This document shows, in pieces, positions 4,569-14,617 of a DNA stretch of 64,000 bases. Each line of letters begins with the position of its first letter. The stretch's first letter is position 1. The DNA comes from a virus (lineage: Duplodnaviria; Caudoviricetes): positions 1 to 64,000 of IMG/VR virus record IMGVR_UViG_3300021958_000044, one strand, 5' to 3'. The translations under genes and the position numbers were made by a program. Under the pieces are notes generated by a model. The model searched no databases, had not been told where the DNA came from, and saw only the letters and a list, made by a program, of their open reading frames with translations.

Positions 4569-7500
4569 TTAAGCTACTCTTAACCACAATTTAACTGTAG
4601 AAATTGTTTCAGTTCCAGAGTCAACTGTTAATCCTGACCAGGCATTATCATAGTTTCCAAGGTACGTGGCAACATAATTTCCAATAAAAGTTCCTTCGTA
4701 TTGTTTTGTATATGTCTTAGTATACTGGCCAATATATGTTTTTGTATATTGGGTTGTGTAGTAACCAGTAAATACGCCTTCATATACTTTATCAAAATAC
4801 CCAGTAAACAATTGCGAGTACTGACCTTGATACAGTTTAGTGTATAGACCTACCCATACTTTTTCAAACTGACTGCTGTAGTATCCAGTAAACGATCCTT
4901 CATACTCTTTTGTATAAACTTTTAAGTAAGTACCGCTATACTGTCTTTGGAACACTCCTTCAAATGTTCCTTCATACAATCCAAGATAAGTTTTAGTGTA
5001 TTGACCAGAATAGTCACCGGCCCACACTTTAACAAAGTCGCCAACGTAAGCTCCTTCATATTGTTTTGTAAATGCTCCTTCAAATTGTTTGTTAAAAGCA
5101 CCTTCATATGTTTTACTAAACTGTTGACTGTATTGACCAATATATGTTTTTATGTAGTTGCCTGTAAATGCACCTTCGTATTGTTTTGTGTAGTTTCCAA
5201 GATACGTTGTGTTGTATGCGCCTTCGTATTGCTTGGTATACGTTCCTTCGTACACGCCTGTATACACGCCTTCGTATATTTGAGGTCCCTCATAAATTCC
5301 TATATAGTATCCTGTATAGATACCCGCATATGCTTTTTCATATGACTTATTATAGAACCCATTATAGTAGCCAGTGTAATCACCGTTATATGTTCTTGAT
5401 CCGGCCCATAGTTTAGCATATGCTTTAATATATGCTACTGAAACATATGTCTTATTAAAAGCGCCTTCAAAGTTGCCTGTATATTGACCAGCATATGTTC
5501 TGGATCCAGCATACTGACCTGCATATGCTTTTACGTATCCAGGTGCGTATGTTTTAGCATAATTTGTTCCATATTGGTCCGCATACGTTCTTGTACCAGC
5601 ATATTGCTTAGTGTAATTCTTATTAAATGTACCTTCATACTGTTTATTATATTGACCAGTGTATGTTCTTGATCCAGCATATTGCGCAGCAAATGTTCCA
5701 GAATAGAATAAGTTAAATATTCCTACGTATGCTCTTTCATAATTTTTATTATACGACTTAATGTAATCTCTTGTATAATTTCCTACATAGTTTTTGTTGT
5801 ATGCGCCTTCATACAATGCACTGTAGATATTAATATAATTTTTAGACCATAACCCTGTGTACTGCTTGAGATATTGTTTTGTATACACGCCCTCGTACGT
5901 TGCAGAGTAATTTTTGTTGAAAGATCCTTCATACAGAGCAAGATATTGTTTGTTGTATTGTCCAACATACGTTTTAATGAACAGTCCAGTGTAAGTTGCA
6001 ACATATTGCTTTGCAAATACTCCCTCATATCCTTTGTTATAGTTAGTATTGTATGTTCCAGCATACTCACCAGCATAGTTTGTTCCATATGTACCTGCAT
6101 AGTCAGCACCATATGATTTTGAGAAAGTGCCAGAGAATATGCCTTCATATTGTTGATTGTATATGCCTACAAACGTAGTGTTGTATACGCCTTCATATAA
6201 TTTAGTATAATTGGTACCATACGTTCCTGCATACTCGTTTGCATAATTCTTATTATAGGTACCTGCATAATCTGCACCATAGTTTGATGTATACGTACCA
6301 GTAAACGCGCCTTCATATTGTTTATTGTATTGTCCTGCATACAATTTTGCATATTGCTTAGCATATGTTCTGATCCAATTTTTTACATAGTTTCTTGTGT
6401 AAGTGCCACCAAATTGTCTTGAATAGTTACCAGTATATTGTTTAGTATAATTGGTACCATATTGCTTAGTATAGTTGCCAGAATAATCGCGAGTGTAATT
6501 ACCTGTATATTGTTTAGTATAATTGGTACTATATTGCTTAGTATAGTTACCAGAATAATCGCGAGTATAATTTCCAGTGTATTGTTTAGCATAGTTTGCA
6601 GTATAGTCTTTTGTGTAGTTAGTGTTGTATGTTCCACTGAACTGTCTGGCATAGTTGCCTGTATACTGTTGGGCATAGTTTGCTGTGTATGCTTTGGCGT
6701 AGTTTGTACCATAAGTTCCAGCAAACGTGCCAGTGTATTGGCCAGTATATTGCTTTAAGTAATTGGTACCGTATTGTCTTCCGTAGTTTGTACCATAAGT
6801 TCCAGCAAACGTGCCAGTGTATTGGCCAGTATATTGCTTTAAGTAATTGGTACCGTATTGCCTGTCATAATTTGATGCGTAAGTTCCAGCAAATTGTCTT
6901 GCGTAGCTTCCTGCATACTGCTTTAAATAGTTAGTACCATATTGTCTGTCATAGTTACTAGTGTACGTTCCAGTAAACGTATTATCATAATACCCAGTGG
7001 ACGTAACTGAGAAATGTCTGTTCCAATTAACATTATAGTTTGTTACGTATGTTCCACTAAATGCTCTATCATAGTTTCCTGTATACTGCTTTAAATAGTT
7101 AGTACCATATTGTCTGTTATATCTTTTTGTATAGTTACCAGTATACGCTCTAGTATAGTTTCCTGTATATTGTCTAGTATAGTTTATACTATATTGTCTA
7201 TCATAGTTGCTTGTATACTGTCCAGTAAACCCTTTAGTATAGTTAATAAGTCTTGCGTAACTTACTGTCCCTGGACCGTTATATTCCATTTCACCATTTA
7301 GTATGTTACTACCGGCAATCCAACCCTTTGGAAAAATATCGTTATTATAGTTTACTGCTCCCCCAGCATAGTATTGGGTGCTTAAATAGAATGGACCTGC
7401 TTTTGCAGCTGCAAAAGCAACATCACGAGCATAGTTAATGCTACCCGTATAGTTTGTTCCAGGACCGAGGAAGAATTGCTCTCTCTGATAATTTGTATTA

Positions 7501-10500
7501 TATGTTCCAGAGTATTGTCTAGCATATCTAGCAGTCCATTGCTTTAAGAAGTTAGTCGCATATTGGCCGGAGAAGGTAGTATTATAAGTTCCTGCATACT
7601 GTCTATCATATGCCTTTGTCCATTGAACTAGATAGTTAGTTCCATATGTTCCAGCAAACTGTCTTGCATAGTTTCCTGTATATGCTTTTTGCCATGCTTT
7701 TGTCCAAGTCTTAGCCCATTGTTTTACATAGTTACCAGCAAATGCTCTTACATAGTTTCCTGTATATGCTTTTTGATATCTTCTAGTCCATTGAACGAGA
7801 TAGTTAGTTCCATACTGCCCACTAAATGCTCTATCATAGTTTCCTGTATATTGTCTAGTATATCTTCTAGTCCATTGAACGAGATAGTTGGTTCCATACG
7901 TTCCAGCAAATAACCTATCATAATTTCCAGTGTATTGTTTAAGATATTGTTTTGTCCATTGAACAAGATAGTTGGTTCCATACGTTCCAGCAAACAATGT
8001 ATTATAAGCACCAGTGTATTGTTTAAGATATTGTCTTGTCCAAGCTACTTGCCAGTTAGTCGTATATTGGCCAGTAAACGTTCTATCGTAAGCGCCTGTA
8101 TAACTTTTTAAATATTGTTTTTGCCAAGCTACTTGATAGTTAGTTGTATACTGTCCAGAGAAAGTAGTTTGATAAACACCGCCATATAGTCTGGAATATT
8201 GCTGTAGATAATTTGTAGCATACTGTCCAGAGAAAGTAGTTTGATAAACACCGCCATATAGTCTGGAATATTGCTGTAGATAATTTGTAGCATATTGGCC
8301 TGTAAATGCTCTCTCGTATAAACCAGCATATGCTTTTTGGAAAGATGCTGTATAATCTTTGTTATAATTAGCAGTGTATAATCTTTCGTAATTACCGCCG
8401 TATGTTTTTGTCCACTGGCTTACGTATTGTCCCACATATGCTTTTTGCCAAATTTTGGCATAGTTGCCTGTGTATGCTTTTGTGTATAATCTTTGATAGG
8501 ATCCAGTGTACTGTTTAAGATATTGTCTGTTCCATTGGCCAGTGTATGATTTTACCCAGTTACCAGTATACGCTTTAGTCCACAGACTTGTGTACAGACC
8601 AGTATATTGATTGATCCAAATTTTTGCATATAAGCCAGTATACTGCTTTAACCAGTTTCTACTGTAGATGCCCGCATAAGCCTTTTGATACAGTTTTGTG
8701 TAGATGCCTGCATATTCTTTTGTATAGTTCTTATTCCAGCTGCTAATATAGTTAGCAGTGTATGCTCCCTCATATGTTTTGGTCCACAATCTATCAAATT
8801 GGCCAACATACGTTTTTGTATATGCTTTTACATAAGCACCAGTATAAGCCTTTTGGTATTGTTTGGTGTAATTAGTTTCGTAGTTTTTTATGTAATCTTT
8901 AGCATAAGTCTTGACATACGCGCCTACGTATGTCTTGGTGTAATTCCCGGTGTATAACCTATTGTAATCGGTTGTATACGTTTTTACGTAAGCACTTGTG
9001 TATGCGCCCTCAAAAGACCCAGCAAGGAAGAATCCCGTGTAGAATTCCGTTGTACTAGCATATGTGCCCTCGAACGTACGAGTGCCTTCATATTGAGCTG
9101 TATACTGGCCAGTATATGATTTTAAATAGTTTGTGCTATATTGTCCATTGTAAGTTCTAGATCCTGCATACAGCTTTGCATATTGGTTGACATAGTTTAC
9201 ACCTAGATAAGTTTTATTAAAGTATCCTGTGTATTGTCCTTCATAGGTTCTGGTACCTGAGAACTGTCTTGAAAATATGCCAATGTAAGTTTTGGTCCAA
9301 TTACCGACATATGCTTTTTGATATTGATCTGCATACTGGCCAGCATATGTTCTGGATCCTGCATATACTCCTTCATAAGCGCCTTCGTATGTTTTTACAT
9401 ATTGCTTAGTAAACGTTCCTTCATAGTTGCCAGCATACACGCCTTCAAACTGTCTTACGCCTGTATAGTATCCTGTGAACGTACCCTCATACTGTCCGGT
9501 GTATGCTTTCTCATATTGGCCAACATATGTCTTAGTGTAGTTTCCAATATAAAGTTTTTCATACTGGCCGACGTATACGCCTGTGTATGTTTTGTTAAAT
9601 GCGCCTTCGAATGTTCCAGTATATTGTTTTACATATTGGCCTATAAAAGTTCCAGTGTATTGGCCCAAGAAAGTTTTGGTATACAGTCCTAAGAAAATTC
9701 TAGAGTAAGTATCAGAAAAATATCCAGTAAACGTTCCTTCGTATTGTTTGTTGAACGCTCCTTCAAATTGTCTACTATATTGACCAACATAGGATTTTAA
9801 ATATGTTCCTACATACTGGCCTTGATATTGTTTTGTATAAACGCCAACATAGACGCCTTCAAATGCTCCTGTGTATTGTGCAACGAAGGATCCCTCATAT
9901 TGCTTGGTATAGTTTCCTGTAAACGTTCCTTCGTATTGGCCTACATATGTTTTTGTATATTGGCCAGTGTAAGCACCTACATAAGTTTTTTCGTATTGTT
10001 TTGTAAATGCACCTTCATACTGCTTATTATATGCTTTTTCGTAAATACCAATGTAAGCGCCAGAATATGTTTTGTCAAATGCACCTACATACGTAGCAGC
10101 ATACTGCTGACTTGAAATAGTGTTTCTTGTATCTGTAACATCATCACTAACTAACACCCAAGTCTCACCCGGTGCAGCTGGATTAGTAGAAGCTAATCTA
10201 TATGTTCCAATTCCCGTATCTACTATTTGATTTCTTAATCGAGCTGCAAGAGTTTTAATCTCTGCATCTGACATTTCTTGAATTGAGCTGCTGTTTAGTC
10301 TTACAGGTCTAGTTACAGAAGGACTAGAAACGCCTTGGTCTTTTCTCCATAGCTTGTATACTGTGGTACCTTGTTTGTTTGTATCTGTTACGCTGTATCC
10401 TGAATCACTATAAAGACTTGCATTTGGATTTACTTCAGATAACCAATATGATCCCAAACCATTAGAAACTAGGTTAGAAAGAGCTCTTGAAATAATGGTA

Positions 10501-10850
10501 GAAGATAGGTTGTTGCTATGCTCTGCTGCATATCCATTATCGTCGACAAATAAAGGATACACAATAGACGACTCCGACGTAGATGTTAAGTTTTGTTTTA
10601 ACGTATACGTACTGGTTGATATTGCATTTTGCGAAGGGTGAAATCCTACCACCTCTGTTCTGGTAGTATCAGAAAATGATCCCGCATCCGTTCCGTCACC
10701 ATTTATATTAATGGTTCCTGATGCAGTTAATGAGACTGAAAATTCTGTAAGAACCTGATGAACAGCATAGTCCATCTCGGCATCTTGCATCTCTTGTAAA
10801 CCAAGAAATGTACTGCCAACAGTTTCTTTTAATCTTAGAGGATTACCCAT
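4569..10850 (-). CDS. Giant Tyr/Gly/Thr-rich tetrapeptide-repeat protein, probable tail fibre (2093 aa)
   Basis: About 250-aa N-terminal domain with duplicated QEM(Q/S)DAE motif; about 1750 aa of [YFW]-x-x-x repeats split by a non-repeat core (res ~1122-1204); short C-terminal tail; located in the fibre cluster. Confidence 0.8.
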   Translation of the reverse strand: MGNPLRLKETVGSTFLGLQEMQDAEMDYAVHQVLTEFSVSLTASGTININGDGTDAGSFSDTTRTEVVGFHPSQNAISTSTYTLKQNLTSTSESSIVYPLFVDDNGYAAEHSNNLSSTIISRALSNLVSNGLGSYWLSEVNPNASLYSDSGYSVTDTNKQGTTVYKLWRKDQGVSSPSVTRPVRLNSSSIQEMSDAEIKTLAARLRNQIVDTGIGTYRLASTNPAAPGETWVLVSDDVTDTRNTISSQQYAATYVGAFDKTYSGAYIGIYEKAYNKQYEGAFTKQYEKTYVGAYTGQYTKTYVGQYEGTFTGNYTKQYEGSFVAQYTGAFEGVYVGVYTKQYQGQYVGTYLKSYVGQYSRQFEGAFNKQYEGTFTGYFSDTYSRIFLGLYTKTFLGQYTGTFIGQYVKQYTGTFEGAFNKTYTGVYVGQYEKLYIGNYTKTYVGQYEKAYTGQYEGTFTGYYTGVRQFEGVYAGNYEGTFTKQYVKTYEGAYEGVYAGSRTYAGQYADQYQKAYVGNWTKTYIGIFSRQFSGTRTYEGQYTGYFNKTYLGVNYVNQYAKLYAGSRTYNGQYSTNYLKSYTGQYTAQYEGTRTFEGTYASTTEFYTGFFLAGSFEGAYTSAYVKTYTTDYNRLYTGNYTKTYVGAYVKTYAKDYIKNYETNYTKQYQKAYTGAYVKAYTKTYVGQFDRLWTKTYEGAYTANYISSWNKNYTKEYAGIYTKLYQKAYAGIYSRNWLKQYTGLYAKIWINQYTGLYTSLWTKAYTGNWVKSYTGQWNRQYLKQYTGSYQRLYTKAYTGNYAKIWQKAYVGQYVSQWTKTYGGNYERLYTANYNKDYTASFQKAYAGLYERAFTGQYATNYLQQYSRLYGGVYQTTFSGQYATNYLQQYSRLYGGVYQTTFSGQYTTNYQVAWQKQYLKSYTGAYDRTFTGQYTTNWQVAWTRQYLKQYTGAYNTLFAGTYGTNYLVQWTKQYLKQYTGNYDRLFAGTYGTNYLVQWTRRYTRQYTGNYDRAFSGQYGTNYLVQWTRRYQKAYTGNYVRAFAGNYVKQWAKTWTKAWQKAYTGNYARQFAGTYGTNYLVQWTKAYDRQYAGTYNTTFSGQYATNFLKQWTARYARQYSGTYNTNYQREQFFLGPGTNYTGSINYARDVAFAAAKAGPFYLSTQYYAGGAVNYNNDIFPKGWIAGSNILNGEMEYNGPGTVSYARLINYTKGFTGQYTSNYDRQYSINYTRQYTGNYTRAYTGNYTKRYNRQYGTNYLKQYTGNYDRAFSGTYVTNYNVNWNRHFSVTSTGYYDNTFTGTYTSNYDRQYGTNYLKQYAGSYARQFAGTYASNYDRQYGTNYLKQYTGQYTGTFAGTYGTNYGRQYGTNYLKQYTGQYTGTFAGTYGTNYAKAYTANYAQQYTGNYARQFSGTYNTNYTKDYTANYAKQYTGNYTRDYSGNYTKQYSTNYTKQYTGNYTRDYSGNYTKQYGTNYTKQYTGNYSRQFGGTYTRNYVKNWIRTYAKQYAKLYAGQYNKQYEGAFTGTYTSNYGADYAGTYNKNYANEYAGTYGTNYTKLYEGVYNTTFVGIYNQQYEGIFSGTFSKSYGADYAGTYGTNYAGEYAGTYNTNYNKGYEGVFAKQYVATYTGLFIKTYVGQYNKQYLALYEGSFNKNYSATYEGVYTKQYLKQYTGLWSKNYINIYSALYEGAYNKNYVGNYTRDYIKSYNKNYERAYVGIFNLFYSGTFAAQYAGSRTYTGQYNKQYEGTFNKNYTKQYAGTRTYADQYGTNYAKTYAPGYVKAYAGQYAGSRTYAGQYTGNFEGAFNKTYVSVAYIKAYAKLWAGSRTYNGDYTGYYNGFYNKSYEKAYAGIYTGYYIGIYEGPQIYEGVYTGVYEGTYTKQYEGAYNTTYLGNYTKQYEGAFTGNYIKTYIGQYSQQFSKTYEGAFNKQFEGAFTKQYEGAYVGDFVKVWAGDYSGQYTKTYLGLYEGTFEGVFQRQYSGTYLKVYTKEYEGSFTGYYSSQFEKVWVGLYTKLYQGQYSQLFTGYFDKVYEGVFTGYYTTQYTKTYIGQYTKTYTKQYEGTFIGNYVATYLGNYDNAWSGLTVDSGTETISTVKLWLRVA
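6435..6590 (-). repeat. Imperfect 72-bp (24-aa) tandem duplication in the C-terminal arm of the 2093-aa gene
   Basis: atattgtttagtataattggtac recurs at 6435 and 6507. Confidence 0.85.
6698..6860 (-). repeat. 84-bp (28-aa) tandem duplication, 79 bp identical, in the C-terminal arm
   Basis: 6698-6776 equals 6782-6860; the same period is visible at 6921 and 7089. Confidence 0.9.
7786..8120 (-). repeat. Imperfect 84-bp (28-aa) tandem array in the N-terminal arm
   Basis: gtccattgaac at 7786, 7870 and 7954, and gtccaag at 8038. Confidence 0.85.
8149..8292 (-). repeat. Perfect 72-bp (24-aa) tandem duplication in the N-terminal arm
   Basis: 8149-8220 is identical to 8221-8292 (GQYATNYLQQYSRLYGGVYQTTFS x2). 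Confidence 0.95.
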
Positions 10851-10855
10851 TAATA

Positions 10856-13800
10856 CTATGCCTTAAATTTGTAAGCGCTGTCACCATAGACGCTACCGGT
10901 ATTTATAAATGTAATCCTAGCTGCATCGTAACCAATGATAGCAGATCCAGGAATTCCTCCGTCACCAGATTGACCATACTGAGTATAGTTTGTACCTGGA
11001 TTAGGCTCACTAATATCATTTGTACCAGCTGCTGGTGAATCATTAAATCCGCCAGCTCCTATACCTAATTGGCCTAGTAATCCTCCGTCTCCTCCATGTA
11101 TTCCATAATTGACAGCACTATCTGTGCCATTTCTGTTTGAATTGTTTTCTGTAATATAGCCTAATGTAGTATTGTAACCAGCACCATGACCACCATTACC
11201 ACCTGCTAATGATTCTGTAGAACCATTGACTGGGAAGCCACCGGCACCACCACCGCCACCGCCTCCAGATATTGTACCGTAGTTTTCTATAAACAAATCT
11301 ACGCCATTTTCGGTCTTAACAGCATTACCGCCATTACCACCGCTCGATCCTGTTCTTGTGGCCGGTGTTGCTGTTCCTCTAGCACCAGAAGATCCGATTA
11401 TACCACCACCATCTTTAATTAGTATTCTAACTTTATGTCTGAATATTGACCTAAGCACATTCAAAGTACTCAAATCCAATGCTGGCGAAGTTGTGGATGT
11501 TCCAAATAAAAATACCCCAGGTTCAATAGTAATGTTTACATGCTGAGGAAGCGTTCCAGGACTTGCCCCAAGATTGCTTAATTCGGTTCTCAAAACATAA
11601 TTGGTTGTATTAGAAGAGATTGTTATATCATGCCTTTGATACTTAACATGAGAAACTTTCCACTCATCCCCTTCTTTAATCCTACCAACAATTACATTTT
11701 TCCATTCATCAGCTACTTTAACATTAAGCTCTTCGACTTGCTTCATTGTGCCGCTTTCATTGATATTGCTGACACCACCGCCAGTAGTAGTTAATTCTCC
11801 TGTCTTGGTATTTGCAACGGCCGTTGTGCTAGCATAACTAGTAACATACGAAATAGGTCCTGTATAATTGTTTGTATAATGAAGTGCTTTAGATACGCTA
11901 GCATAGTTTCCTACGAATACGCCACCATATGACTTAACAAAGGTTCCTTCGTATTGCTTGTTGAATGCACCTTCGTATACCTTTGTATACGTTTTACCAT
12001 ACTGCTTAGTGAATGCACCTTCAAATTGTTTATTGAATGCGCCTTCAAAAGTTCCTGTATATTGGCCAAGATATGTTTTATTGTAAACGCCAGAATATGT
12101 TTTGACGTAATCGCCTAAGTAAGTCTTATTATATGTTTTTATATAATTTTTATTAAATGCGCCTTCGTATAGTTTTGTATACTGCTTAGTATACAGACCA
12201 ACAAACACTCTTGAGAACGTTCCTATGTCATTTCCGCCATAGTACTGTACGCCAGTAAATTGTCTAGAGTAGGTCCCTGACCACTGTGAATTCCAATTTT
12301 TACTATATGCTTTTGTCCATTGTTTAGTAAACGCACCTTCATATTGCTTAATATAATTCTTATCAAAAGATCCTTCATACTGTTTAGTAAACACACCCTC
12401 AAAGGCACCTTCATATTGTTTATGATATGACTTTATCCATTGTTTGTTATATACGCCTGTCCAATATCCAATGTAGTCTCTAGTACCTTCGTACGCTTTT
12501 GTATACTGTTCCGTAAATTGTCTGTTGTAATTTTTTGTCCACGTTTTAGAATAAATGCCAACCCATATCTGATCCCAAATTTTTGCATACTGCTTAATAT
12601 AATTTTTTGTCCAGTTTCTTTGCCATTGGCCAGTATATGCTTTTTGATAAAGTTTTGTCCACTGTCTATCATACTGTCTTTCGTAGTTTCCTGTGTACAG
12701 TTTTATATATCTTTTTGTCCAAGAGTTTTGGTATGTTCCAGTGTAATCGCCAGCATATGAATTTGCATACTCGTTTTGATAGTTTGCTGAATATTGCTTT
12801 GTCCACTGCTTAGTCCAAACTCTTTGATAACTCCCAGTAAACACTTCATCAACCGATCCAACATATTGCGGCTCAAACGAACCAACATAATTTCTACCGT
12901 AGTTTTGAGTTCCAGTCCCTTGATAGGAGGCGTTGAAACTCTCATAGAAAACAATTGGTGGATTAAACTCGGGCTCGACTTCGGTTCTTGAATACGTCTT
13001 TACATACGATGCCCCACCTTCAAATTGTTTTAAATAAGTGCCTATAAATGCTCTATGATAAGCCAATCCTCCAAAAAAAACGTTCTCACCACCAGCATAG
13101 TTGCGTAGGCCTCGATAATAATTCTCTCCATTAGCTGGTAATTGTATCCCATCAAAGGTTTGTTGGAACCATGCCCATCCTTGATACAGGCCTGTATAGA
13201 ATCTTGCCCATCCACGAATATAAGATGGACCTGGACCAGCCCAAGCTCTTGAATACGTACCTAGCCATTGAGTAGAGTATGTTGCAGTAAAATCAGCAGT
13301 AGTATACTGCCTAGACCATTGGCCGCCATATAACTTGATCCATTGTCTTTGATAGGATCCAGCCCAATCTCTAGACCATTGTCCTACCCAATTTGTATCA
13401 TACTCATTCTGGTATTGGCCCTGATATAGTTTAACATAATTACCTGTGTACTGTCTGTCGTAGTTTTCAGTATAAACGCCTTCATACACTCCTACATAGT
13501 GTTTAGTATAATCCCTAGAGTAATTTGCTCCGTAGTATCCTGTATACTGTCCCTCATAGTTATCGCCATATTGTCTCTGCCAGGTTTTAGTATATTGACG
13601 AGCATAGTTTGTTTCAAAATATTCAGTAGCTGTTCTATAGCTTTGGAACACTCCTGTATACGCAGCATCGTATGCTTTATTGTATGTTTTAGTGAACAGT
13701 TGGGTATAAATGCCTGTATAGGCTTTCTCGTATTGGCCAACGTAAGTCTTGGTATACGCTTTTGAAAAAAGATGTGTATATACTGCAGTATATTGTTTAT

Positions 13801-14287
13801 TGTAGATTTTTGTATATACGCCTACCCCGTCTCTTGCAAAAAGCCCTGTAAATGCTCCTGTATATTGTCTTGCATAAGGACCGCCAGAAAAGTTTCCTGT
13901 ATAAGAACCTTCCCATTGATGGGACCACTGGTGAGAATATTGGCCAATGTATGTTTTGGTATACGTTTTGTTATATGATTTTACATAGGCACCGACATAA
14001 GTTTTATTAAAAACGCCAGAATATTGTTTATTAAATGCGCCTTCAAACTGTCTACTATACTGCCCTACAAACGTTCCTGTGTACTGTCCTAGATAAGTTT
14101 TTGTGTATTGTTTGCCGTAAACTTTTGTAAACAGACCAACATACGTTTTTGTATATTGTCCTGTATATGCTTTAATGTAAGCACCAACGTAAAGAATCTT
14201 AGGGGCTAGGTTATCTACGCCAATAAAAGACGCATCATAATCTCTAGAACCACTTAAATAAGATTTTGAATAATTTATGTTTGCCAC
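10856..14287 (-). CDS. Tyr-rich tetrapeptide-repeat tail fibre with C-terminal gp38-like polyglycine adhesin domain (1143 aa)
   Basis: GTG start; same [YFW]xxx repeat as the neighbouring gene; C-terminus ...GGNGGNAV...LFIENYGTISGGGGGGGAGG resembles the T2/T6-type gp38 adhesin signature. Confidence 0.8.
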   Translation of the reverse strand: MANINYSKSYLSGSRDYDASFIGVDNLAPKILYVGAYIKAYTGQYTKTYVGLFTKVYGKQYTKTYLGQYTGTFVGQYSRQFEGAFNKQYSGVFNKTYVGAYVKSYNKTYTKTYIGQYSHQWSHQWEGSYTGNFSGGPYARQYTGAFTGLFARDGVGVYTKIYNKQYTAVYTHLFSKAYTKTYVGQYEKAYTGIYTQLFTKTYNKAYDAAYTGVFQSYRTATEYFETNYARQYTKTWQRQYGDNYEGQYTGYYGANYSRDYTKHYVGVYEGVYTENYDRQYTGNYVKLYQGQYQNEYDTNWVGQWSRDWAGSYQRQWIKLYGGQWSRQYTTADFTATYSTQWLGTYSRAWAGPGPSYIRGWARFYTGLYQGWAWFQQTFDGIQLPANGENYYRGLRNYAGGENVFFGGLAYHRAFIGTYLKQFEGGASYVKTYSRTEVEPEFNPPIVFYESFNASYQGTGTQNYGRNYVGSFEPQYVGSVDEVFTGSYQRVWTKQWTKQYSANYQNEYANSYAGDYTGTYQNSWTKRYIKLYTGNYERQYDRQWTKLYQKAYTGQWQRNWTKNYIKQYAKIWDQIWVGIYSKTWTKNYNRQFTEQYTKAYEGTRDYIGYWTGVYNKQWIKSYHKQYEGAFEGVFTKQYEGSFDKNYIKQYEGAFTKQWTKAYSKNWNSQWSGTYSRQFTGVQYYGGNDIGTFSRVFVGLYTKQYTKLYEGAFNKNYIKTYNKTYLGDYVKTYSGVYNKTYLGQYTGTFEGAFNKQFEGAFTKQYGKTYTKVYEGAFNKQYEGTFVKSYGGVFVGNYASVSKALHYTNNYTGPISYVTSYASTTAVANTKTGELTTTGGGVSNINESGTMKQVEELNVKVADEWKNVIVGRIKEGDEWKVSHVKYQRHDITISSNTTNYVLRTELSNLGASPGTLPQHVNITIEPGVFLFGTSTTSPALDLSTLNVLRSIFRHKVRILIKDGGGIIGSSGARGTATPATRTGSSGGNGGNAVKTENGVDLFIENYGTISGGGGGGGAGGFPVNGSTESLAGGNGGHGAGYNTTLGYITENNSNRNGTDSAVNYGIHGGDGGLLGQLGIGAGGFNDSPAAGTNDISEPNPGTNYTQYGQSGDGGIPGSAIIGYDAARITFINTGSVYGDSAYKFKA
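10900..10907 (-). promoter_or_regulatory. T4-type late promoter TATAAATA inside the 3' end of the 1143-aa gene
   Basis: Exact consensus about 50 nt upstream of the 2093-aa gene start. Confidence 0.65.
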
Positions 14288-14299
14288 TCAGGCTCTCCC

Positions 14300-14617
14300 T
14301 TACGTTAGAGTCTGATACCAAACGTCTCCATTGTTACCAACTGAATTATTAGCTGGCGCTGAAGTAGATATATAAATTCTCTGGTTTTCTGTATGAGTGT
14401 GAGAAGTTGTGTTACCAAATGTAACACCAGTTACATTAACTGACGCGTTACTAGCTGATGTTAATCTGCCTTTGGCATCAACTGTAAACGATACCAATTG
14501 TGTGTTATTAGATGTATATGCAGCTGCAGTGACGCCTGTATTAGGAAGGGCTGTATCTGTAACCTGGGCAGAGGTATTAACAATCTCCGTAGTACCATGT
14601 AATATTTTATCGGCCAT
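14300..14617 (-). CDS. Small tail-fibre-related protein (105 aa)
   Basis: Contains FTVDAKGRLTSAS and C-terminal ISTSAP...GNNGDVWYQ motifs common in phage fibre modules. Confidence 0.7.
   Translation of the reverse strand: MADKILHGTTEIVNTSAQVTDTALPNTGVTAAAYTSNNTQLVSFTVDAKGRLTSASNASVNVTGVTFGNTTSHTHTENQRIYISTSAPANNSVGNNGDVWYQTLT

Follow-up and report, generated by a model that had tools for sequence, protein, structure and literature searches.

The tail-fibre protein P0001, from an uncultured and divergent myovirus of the T4-like kind, has two long repeat arms that very probably pair in antiparallel orientation, most likely as one very long hairpin, within a chain that ends in a gp38-type adhesin. 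The protein is the translation of a 1143-aa ORF located in the window, i.e., the whole stretch of 64,000 nt of viral DNA that was analysed, and its gene sits within a block of baseplate and tail-fibre genes whose synteny is conserved. The start residue matches that of the homologs, which share the start MAxINY in the family alignment. The case for mirror symmetry between the arms rests on the type and order of the breaks in their repeats, on mirrored gradients of composition and conservation, and on covariation within the protein family.

Gene layout and the aromatic lattice

Aromatic residues recur at exactly every fourth position in two stretches, aa 33-349 and aa 483-795, with few interruptions, and the unit composition of the N arm follows the rung pattern [YFW]-[TSVEN]-[GKR]-[QTAN] (Table 1). 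The arms are nearly equal in length (316 residues for the N arm and 312 for the C arm), and the layout proposed in the earlier note, two repeat arms flanking a non-repeat core, is borne out by the aromatic spacing. The core is rich in Gly, Pro and aromatics, constitutes the most variable part of the protein, ranges from 28 to ~290 aa across homologs, and is proposed here as the site of chain reversal at the tip of the hairpin. The linker that follows the C arm holds two short repeats of the VKxxDEWK type, with three in many homologs.

Table 1. Features of the fibre gene and its neighbour; positions refer to the window.
Feature	Position	Strand	Basis or content
Adjacent 2093-aa paralog, same lattice, arms ~870 aa; candidate partner	4569..10850	-	lattice runs
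Whole gene P0001	10856..14287	-	N peptide, N arm, core, C arm, linker, gp38-like domain
GGGAG Shine-Dalgarno and GTG start, 12 nt past the stop of the upstream 105-aa ORF	14285..14299	-	sequence read
Conserved N-terminal peptide, aa 1-32	14192..14287	-	35% identity, 26 homologs, few gaps
N arm, aa 33-349, ~79 four-residue rungs	13241..14191	-	aromatic spacing, unit composition
N-arm break, level 100, aa 133-138, short form FSGGPY, opposite the C-arm long form	13874..13891	-	
N-arm RT-type break, aa 214-224, +2 phase shift, level 181-191	13616..13648	-	
Core, aa 350-482, non-lattice	12842..13240	-	11% identity, 42% gaps in family alignment
C arm, aa 483-795, ~78 rungs	11903..12841	-	aromatic spacing; covariation marks it as running antiparallel to the N arm
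C-arm RT-type break, aa 599-609, +2, level 186-196 from C-arm end	12461..12493	-	
C-arm break, level 104-118, aa 677-691, long form with YYGGND	12215..12259	-	
Linker, aa 796-847	11747..11902	-	translation, alignment consensus
gp38-type adhesin domain, aa 848-1143, glycine-rich motifs	10859..11746	-	PF05268, phrog_2056, AF2, Foldseek

The lattice is interrupted in the N arm at 133/138 (FSGGPY, +1), 150/158 (in phase), 214/224 (+2) and 328/333 (+1), and in the C arm at 475/483 (in phase), 599/609 (+2) and 677/691 (+2). Those breaks that can be labelled by type lie at matching levels from the outer ends, namely 100 and 104 for the GG type, and 181 and 186 for the RT type. The pairs reported earlier were found in place, with GGP at 135-137 facing YYGGND at 682-687, the RT break at 214-224 facing GTRDY at 601-605, and arm ends at 33 and 795. 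The previously noted concentration of Trp toward the core also holds in both arms (Mann-Whitney p 0.003 and 0.008), while Phe is biased to the outer ends of both, so that the gradient of composition is mirrored.

The C-terminal region (aa 848-1143) has the gp38 fold, a glycine-rich sandwich, as shown by a Pfam match and by fold matches of its model to the gp38 proteins of PP01 and S16. It matched PF05268 (GP38) with a score of 41.4 bits (cutoff 25; E 1.8e-10; aa 911-1136) and phrog_2056 (aa 857-1136), was modelled by AlphaFold2 with high confidence (pLDDT 82-94), and retrieved 9v85_C (E 3.9e-9, TM by target 0.69) and 6f45_D (E 1.1e-5, TM 0.50) in Foldseek. This candidate adhesin, which would bind the host, is the most conserved region of the protein (49% identity), and forms the fibre protein's own C terminus in P0001 as in the majority of 65 homologs. 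One copy of gp38 that seemed to stand alone, P0067, was rejected as a fragment of a 1.3-kb contig.

Mirror order and covariation in the protein family

A family search recovered 319 library proteins with the Tyr lattice at E up to 0.001, and a single match to the lattice family was found among 50,697 deposited phage genomes. P0001 has the features of this family, that is, equal arms, a non-lattice centre and breaks at mirrored levels. A break at about level 100 is present near both outer ends in all 28 homologs compared: in the N arm it lies 84-106 residues from the arm start (96-106 in all but two), and in the C arm it starts 76-104 residues from the arm end (100-104 in 20 of the 28). One short form always faces one long form, with the arms exchanged in 7/28 homologs. 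The RT-type breaks lie at levels 130-140 (N) and 139-147 (C) in most homologs, at 143 and 152 in two of them, and at about 180-191 and 174-196 in P0001-P0003; the segment between breaks is therefore ~12 rungs longer in both arms of the latter. Conservation is mirrored as well, since identity to homologs along the chain runs 0.34, 0.30 and 0.14 in the N arm, 0.11 in the core, and 0.14, 0.31 and 0.31 in the C arm.

Covariation was calculated as APC-corrected mutual information between the outer 97 residues of each arm in 23 related homologs, a comparison confined to the outer third of each arm. The strongest signals were obtained at mirror offsets 0 (0.073, z 6.8) and -2 (0.071, z 6.6), followed by a weaker one at +2 (0.036, z 3.4), and only background was observed at odd mirror offsets and in direct orientation among the same homologs. 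The background maximum over 145 diagonals, all direct ones included, was 0.025, and permuting the N and C partners 30 times gave a maximum of 0.034; the mirror signal persisted with 27 sequences, with a shorter window of residues and with a reduced alphabet. The top covarying pairs were Gly-Gly and Lys-Lys, with Lys beside Tyr, and Gly beside Phe or Trp, identities that are physically sensible. As read from the alignment, covariation confined to even mirror offsets is the pattern characteristic of an antiparallel beta-ladder (i+j about 824), and places outgoing and returning segments antiparallel side by side, although this signal and the symmetry of the breaks are expected alike from a hairpin in one chain or from a head-to-tail pair of chains. 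Antiparallel long-range contacts, on which the earlier note had made its proposal depend, are thereby supported.

When P0001 is taken by itself, lattice statistics without break labels fail to distinguish mirror from direct repetition. The single-offset mirror autocorrelation of its aromatic lattice was not significant (p 0.18), because one-residue register slips disrupt the signal. In the reverse self-alignment suggested beforehand, with gaps allowed, the binary lattice scored 182 in reverse and 184 forward, against a null of 117 +/- 23. Across 108 family proteins with an unbiased split point, reverse alignment won in 46 and forward in 45; such alignments are uninformative because a local alignment settles on whichever unbroken runs are longest. 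Within P0001 alone, mirrored positions displayed no peak of residue similarity at any sum, and no recent paired DNA duplications were found within its gene, in whose DNA the repeats share 60-85% identity. The correlation of arm lengths was not significant (r = 0.23) with arms set by the largest lattice-free gap, an automatic core call that is unreliable for divergent family members. Counts of break pairs with constant sum versus constant difference were discarded, given that equal spacings chain and bias the result toward the direct model.

The neighbouring 2093-aa protein and its relatives, including a 3347-aa protein (Phage C48C1, OQ984149), resemble P0001 in the lattice, in equal arms around a core and in mirrored breaks, and adjacency of the two genes, the one observation that speaks for a possible heteromeric fibre of both, recurs at three other loci. 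Its lattice runs unbroken over residues 613-1121 and 1204-1712 (508 aa each), and its binary-lattice alignment scored 567 in reverse versus 479 forward (z 4.8). The two types have peptides of 12-16 residues in common; those of 15-16 residues previously reported do exist, with 7/15 codons differing, and the two genes share no DNA words of at least 24 nt. With the codons of the shared peptides diverged, the old paralogy put forward in the earlier note is reasonable. Unlike P0001, the 2093-aa type has a 250-aa N-terminal domain and a conserved 22-aa C-terminal tail, lacks an adhesin domain, and bears arms 2.8 times longer. The idea that both proteins follow the same fold-back design, with P0001 at about one third of the length, agrees with arms of 316/312 versus about 870 residues, a ratio of 0.36.

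A fold-back model and its alternatives

In the model that we favour, the chain would leave the N-terminal peptide in extended beta conformation, with ~79 rungs of four residues each (aromatic, polar, Gly/Lys/Arg, polar) along the strand, would reverse in the variable core, and would return antiparallel in a register of i+j about 823-824. Tyr would pack opposite Tyr, and the Gly/Lys position opposite its counterpart on the same face, giving rise to an aromatic ladder. In a hairpin both termini converge at one end; the N-terminal peptide would thus lie at the open end beside the linker and the adhesin, into which the chain would run on. The adhesin would then sit by the N terminus, an ill-suited position for a receptor binder expected at the far end, and this counts against the hairpin. 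Fibre length would evolve chiefly at the tip of the hairpin, where one indel across the turn would shorten or lengthen both arms together, and by a second route through matched changes in both arms. We infer that the arms pair within one chain, and that the fibre would be thin, about 105 nm long if straight at ~3.3 A per residue, and either monomeric or a small bundle.

The AlphaFold2 model of the full-length protein pairs the arms (39-56/766-783, 76-102/720-746, 175-206/619-648 and 218-241/584-605) with strand-boundary sums of 821-827. The proposed check by structure prediction returned antiparallel pairing in about the expected register, but at very low confidence (pLDDT 23-45), and since AlphaFold2 was fed the same alignment as the covariation analysis, the two lines are not independent. 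A model of aa 200-625 (mean pLDDT 27), in which the register drifts (sums 810-825), is unusable beyond topology. The search for look-alikes of P0001 in the ESM Atlas returned no named cluster and no model.

A more specific version is offered tentatively, with the odds somewhat against it, namely that the arms form a free-standing monomeric two-stranded beta-ribbon of ~100 nm, held together by nothing other than a tyrosine ladder across the strands in which Gly/Lys act as spacers, with the conserved gp38-type adhesin at its base and a hypervariable second binding site at its tip. If true, such a ribbon would represent a new architectural class among fibrous proteins, its length adjustable in steps of one four-residue rung, and the base adhesin together with the tip site would allow two-stage host recognition by one chain.

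An oligomeric variant of the hairpin, in which three fold-back hairpins are bundled on a three-fold axis into a six-stranded stem, appears less likely than not. It has the topology of the T4 gp37 stem exactly (PMC9603124), trimers account for nearly all known tail fibres, and a neighbouring fibre gene encodes an intramolecular chaperone domain associated with trimers. Nevertheless, the Tyr face bears Lys/Arg at more than half of the alternate positions and would be hard to bury in a 15-A stem, both faces of the arms are non-hydrophobic, and HxH metal sites are absent. Furthermore, gp38 adhesins are described as monomeric (PMC12032242) while the domain in P0001 is fused 1:1, and the break forms exchange arms freely, as if both strands had equivalent surroundings.

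We consider improbable that the pairing is between chains, with two or more extended chains arranged head to tail and their cores meeting mid-fibre, even though this arrangement predicts identical i+j covariation, mirrored breaks and the dyad-like swap of short and long forms. It would leave an adhesin at both ends, when a tail fibre needs one end for the virion and one for the host; the Gly/Pro-rich non-lattice centre present in every member, down to 28 residues, is better suited to a turn than to a dimer crossing; length variation clusters around the centre in both arms, as tip indels in a hairpin would give; the AlphaFold2 monomer model folds back; and the T4 gp37 needle provides a precedent for folding back (PMC9603124). 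Least probable of all, to the point that we give it hardly any credence, is an ordinary parallel trimeric fibre, the form of most phage fibres, with repeat blocks arisen by internal duplication and a structurally meaningless mirror symmetry: forward and reverse lattice alignments are indeed alike, but covariation is mirror and not direct, break types are ordered mirror-wise, the gradients of composition and conservation are mirrored, and homogenisation at the DNA level yields direct similarity only, never mirror.

Significance and comparison with known systems

Host range is set by phage tail fibres, and to our knowledge the known tail-fibre shafts are parallel trimers built of triple beta-helices, beta-spirals or coiled coils. 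Here, evidence drawn solely from sequences points to a self-paired shaft of more than 300 residues per arm built on an aromatic repeat of four residues. These proteins number in the hundreds in metagenomes, against one match in deposited genomes, and may therefore represent a large unexplored class of host-recognition proteins in uncultured T4-like phages. The fold-back design would account for changes in fibre length without loss of folding, through tip indels or matched arm changes, and would constitute a natural, programmable nanofibre scaffold; likewise, a gp38-type domain fused at the end of the termini raises the question of which end of the fibre meets the host.

No described counterpart of this fibre design was found among solved structures or papers. 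A PDB search with the protein and the family profile matched no chain at E up to 1, P0001 shows no sequence similarity to gp37, no Pfam family covers the arms, and the literature on tetrapeptide-repeat, tyrosine-repeat or tyrosine-ladder, fold-back or gp38-linked phage fibres yielded only papers on the T4 gp37 needle and on gp38. Tryptophan-zipper hairpins and Borrelia OspA are water-exposed two-stranded or single-layer sheets with cross-strand aromatic pairs and Lys/Thr-rich surfaces that do not rely on a hydrophobic core; however, they span tens of residues versus ~630 paired in P0001, and have neither a lattice nor a role in virus particles.

Among the closest known systems is the T4 gp37 needle (aa 882-1009), in which each chain reaches the tip and turns back (PMC9603124). 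As proposed for P0001, the chain runs out and back in extended conformation, the segment starts and finishes at one and the same knob, and the receptor-binding tip is placed at the turn; moreover, both proteins belong to a T4-like tail-fibre module. Conversely, the arms of the needle comprise ~50 residues versus ~315, and its stem is an interwoven trimer with seven iron ions on His-x-His motifs, in place of which P0001 displays the four-residue aromatic lattice, with no HxH in either arm of the translation. Regarding the adhesin, the C-terminal 296 residues resemble gp38 of the T2-, S16- and PP01-type Straboviridae (PF05268; 6F45 chain D, 9V85) in family profile, predicted fold and glycine-rich motifs. 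Known gp38 is a separate monomeric protein (PMC12032242) that caps the far tip of the gp37 trimer, whereas the version in P0001 forms part of the fibre chain itself and, if the hairpin model holds, would lie beside the N terminus.

Architecture and genomic setting of the fibre gene

P0001, a protein of 1143 aa whose first 796 codons encode the putative fold-back feature, is translated from a GTG preceded by a GGGAG ribosome-binding site at 6-9 nt, and the alignment places the start at the same residue in its homologs. Two arms of 316 (N) and 312 (C) residues repeat the unit [Y/F/W]-[T/S/V/E/N]-[G/K/R]-[Q/T/A/N], forming an aromatic lattice on both sides of a core, and are followed by a linker and a C-terminal domain. 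No Pfam or PHROG family covered the arms in profile searches, and a PDB sequence search with P0001 and with a 27-sequence family profile gave no match. The C-terminal domain matched Pfam GP38 above the cutoff, and its AlphaFold2 model (pLDDT 82-94) can be superposed on the gp38 adhesin structures solved for PP01 and S16. The linker repeat, present in two copies in P0001, corresponds in many homologs to three copies of RVKEDGxWKxV.

The source IMG/VR record is an 81-kb virus contig, ~48% complete, and the gene is surrounded by T4-type baseplate wedge and tail-fibre genes. The gp6-like neighbour shares just 39% identity with the best of its relatives in culture, those of Caulobacter phage Cr30 and Sinorhizobium phiM12-type phages, which points to a divergent, uncultured T4-like myovirus. 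A 105-aa ORF precedes the P0001 gene by 12 nt, and 5 nt separate the end of the P0001 gene from the ATG of the gene for a 2093-aa protein. ORFs of 102-110 aa fill the same upstream slot before P0001-type genes at three other loci; the 105-aa product, with weak PHROG matches only, may be an assembly factor or connector.

Coordinates of P0001, its neighbours and related contigs (levels are residues counted from the outer end of an arm)
Feature	Position	Description
P0001 gene	window 10856-14287 (-)	1143 aa
Upstream ORF	window 14300-14617 (-)	105 aa
C-terminal tail of 2093-aa protein	window 4569-4634 (-)	22 residues, TYTLYVR-type ending
N arm	aa 33-349	Y, F or W exactly every fourth residue
N-arm start	window 14192-14191 boundary	aromatic-x-G-G-aromatic in most homologs
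Core	between arms	133 residues without lattice; Gly, Pro and aromatics abundant
C arm	aa 483-795	Y, F or W exactly every fourth residue
C-arm end	window 11915-11926 (-)	aromatic-G-G-x-aromatic in most homologs
Linker	window 11747-11902 (-), after C arm	52 residues; short VKxxDEWK-type repeats of ~13 residues
GP38 domain	C-terminal, after linker	
GG-type break	N arm, level 100-105; C arm, level 104-118	
RT-type break	N arm, level 181-191; C arm, level 186-196	+2 in both arms
Predicted strand pairs (AlphaFold2)	aa 39-56 with 766-783; 76-102 with 720-746; 114-129 with 695-713; 175-206 with 619-648; 218-241 with 584-605; 249-270 with 555-572	mirrored
Giant fibres downstream of an identical 994-aa P0001-type protein	L002:12992-19183; L003:12992-18073	2063 aa; 1693 aa
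Adhesin-module contig	L005:1-1032	1.3-kb contig

Mirror symmetry and covariation between the arms

Two breaks interrupt each arm of P0001 and shift the lattice phase. They fall into two recognisable types, which follow each other in mirror and not in direct order; the probability that chance would bring both to within 10 residues of their mirrored levels is roughly estimated at (21/312)^2, ~0.005. The pairing of breaks proposed in the earlier note was recovered, and composition bore out its claim that Trp is enriched coreward in both arms, with Phe enriched at the outer ends. Its proposed reverse self-alignment did reveal similarity, but a gapped binary-lattice alignment scored 182 reversed vs 184 forward, so that the mirror was not favoured, and the single-offset mirror autocorrelation gave p 0.18. 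Since such unlabelled statistics of P0001 alone do not tell a mirrored repeat from a direct one, the family was analysed.

Relatives numbered 65 by word-indexed search and 319 at E up to 0.001 by exhaustive HMMER search, most of the close ones displaying identical architecture with the GP38 domain at the end. Labelled breaks were tabulated in 28 relatives of this architecture. In all of them one break begins 84-106 residues into the N arm, or 96-106 if two proteins are set aside, and another begins 76-104 residues before the C arm ends, this distance being 100-104 in 20 proteins. At this level, a short form (xGGPY or TNxxxY) always faces a long one, a 14-16-residue YxGxQxYGGNTxGxF-type motif; the short form occupies the N arm in 21 proteins and the C arm in seven (P0004-P0009, P0011), and no protein of the 28 carries two short or two long forms. 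The arms change in concert, and the swap is tolerated, as the local dyad of an antiparallel pair would lead one to expect. RT-type breaks (N/C) lie at levels 130-140/139-147 in most members, 143/152 in P0010 and P0012, and ~180-191/174-196 in P0001-P0003; being farther from the end in P0001, they leave an inter-break stretch that is ~12 four-residue rungs longer in each arm. Family members vary in length mainly in the inner arms and core, and identity to homologs is mirror-symmetric about the core (N arm 0.34, 0.30 and 0.14; core 0.11; C arm 0.14, 0.31 and 0.31).

Covariation was measured over the outer 97 residues of each arm in 23 homologs, collinear and stacked without an aligner, anchored at the first lattice aromatic (N arm) and at the aromatic after the conserved YGG (C arm; F791 in P0001). 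APC-corrected mutual information (MI) for all 97 x 97 position pairs, averaged along diagonals, peaked on the mirror diagonals at offsets 0 (mean 0.073, z 6.8), -2 (0.071, z 6.6) and +2 (0.036, z 3.4), with 0.014 and 0.017 (z 1.4 and 1.6) at -1 and +1. The 145 background diagonals, made up of the remaining mirror offsets and every direct one, reached at most 0.025, and 30 permutations of N-arm/C-arm partners at most 0.034; the peaks persisted with a shorter window and 27 sequences, and with a 7-letter alphabet. The antiparallel arm pairing previously postulated is therewith supported. Restriction of the signal to even offsets is the pattern of a beta-ladder, which links a residue to the one directly opposite and to that residue's same-face diagonal neighbours. 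The more likely register is i+j = 824 in P0001, with Tyr facing Tyr and the Gly/Lys position facing its counterpart; a centre at 822, with Tyr facing Gly/Lys, seems less likely. The strongest pairs are chemically sensible: opposite positions combine like residues (Gly/Gly, Lys/Lys), and at diagonal positions Lys adjoins Tyr and Gly adjoins Phe or Trp. Recombination between repeats yields direct likeness only, never mirrored, and therefore a structural constraint is the sole plausible cause. The Gly-Gly pairs of the two outer arm ends lie opposite each other in the deduced register.

Chain topology and lattice relatives

P0001 is best read as a fold-back fibre, whose chain would extend outward, reverse in the core and come back, bringing N terminus, linker and adhesin together at one end; if straight, it would measure ~105 nm (316 residues per arm at ~3.3 A per residue). 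The structure prediction called for earlier gave the anticipated topology at low confidence: with the family alignment, full-length AlphaFold2 paired the arms antiparallel (sums 821-827) at an arm pLDDT of 23-45, and a run on aa 200-625 paired them again, with mean pLDDT 27 and a drifting register. The model shares the alignment and is not independent of it, so its agreement concerns topology only.

Both ribbon faces are non-hydrophobic, and over half of the alternate positions on the Tyr face are Lys or Arg, which argues for a thin solvent-exposed ribbon or loose bundle and not a closed trimeric core. The gp38 adhesins are described as monomeric in one study (PMC12032242), and in P0001 the GP38 domain is fused one-to-one to the fibre chain; the fibre may be a monomer or a trimer of hairpins. 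Two chains paired head to tail would also be compatible with the covariation, but this is rated low because a fibre requires polarity, a turn-like Gly/Pro element of at least 28 residues occupies the exact centre of every member, and length variation gathers there, as tip indels would give.

Mirrored lattice runs were confirmed in the 2093-aa protein. Proteins of its type have an N-terminal domain of ~250-300 aa, arms spanning 180 to 1800 residues and the conserved C-terminal tail (~60 library proteins); under the fold-back model, this domain and tail would touch. Downstream of their identical P0001-type proteins, the metagenome contigs L002 and L003 encode giant fibres of 2063 vs 1693 aa, identical wherever aligned and exactly one 370-aa tandem unit apart, the unit having its own internally symmetric non-lattice centre (gaps 56, 21, 56). 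Hairpin-like modules may thus come and go whole, each by a single indel; assembly collapse is another possible cause of the missing unit. L005 matches the C-terminal 296 aa of P0001 at 97% identity. A stop codon lies just before its adhesin module, four codons in from the left edge of the contig; this could reflect an artefact of the assembly edge or a variant whose adhesin has a gene of its own.

Comparison with known fibres and adhesins

A fibre built on a four-residue aromatic repeat was not described in the literature searched, and just one of 50,697 phage records, Phage C48C1 (Kyanoviridae), holds such a protein. By profile and fold, the C-terminal domain genuinely belongs to the GP38 family, but it is fused to the fibre, whereas known gp38 is separate. 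Among known designs, the T4 gp37 needle comes closest, an iron-stapled trimer with arms of ~50 residues in which each chain reaches the tip and turns back (PMC9603124); the topology is common to both, but sequence, metal sites and scale differ. The variable core resembles a tip that binds the receptor, as in gp37, and the conserved termini, where the gp38-like domain sits, resemble the end that is attached or that serves secondary binding.
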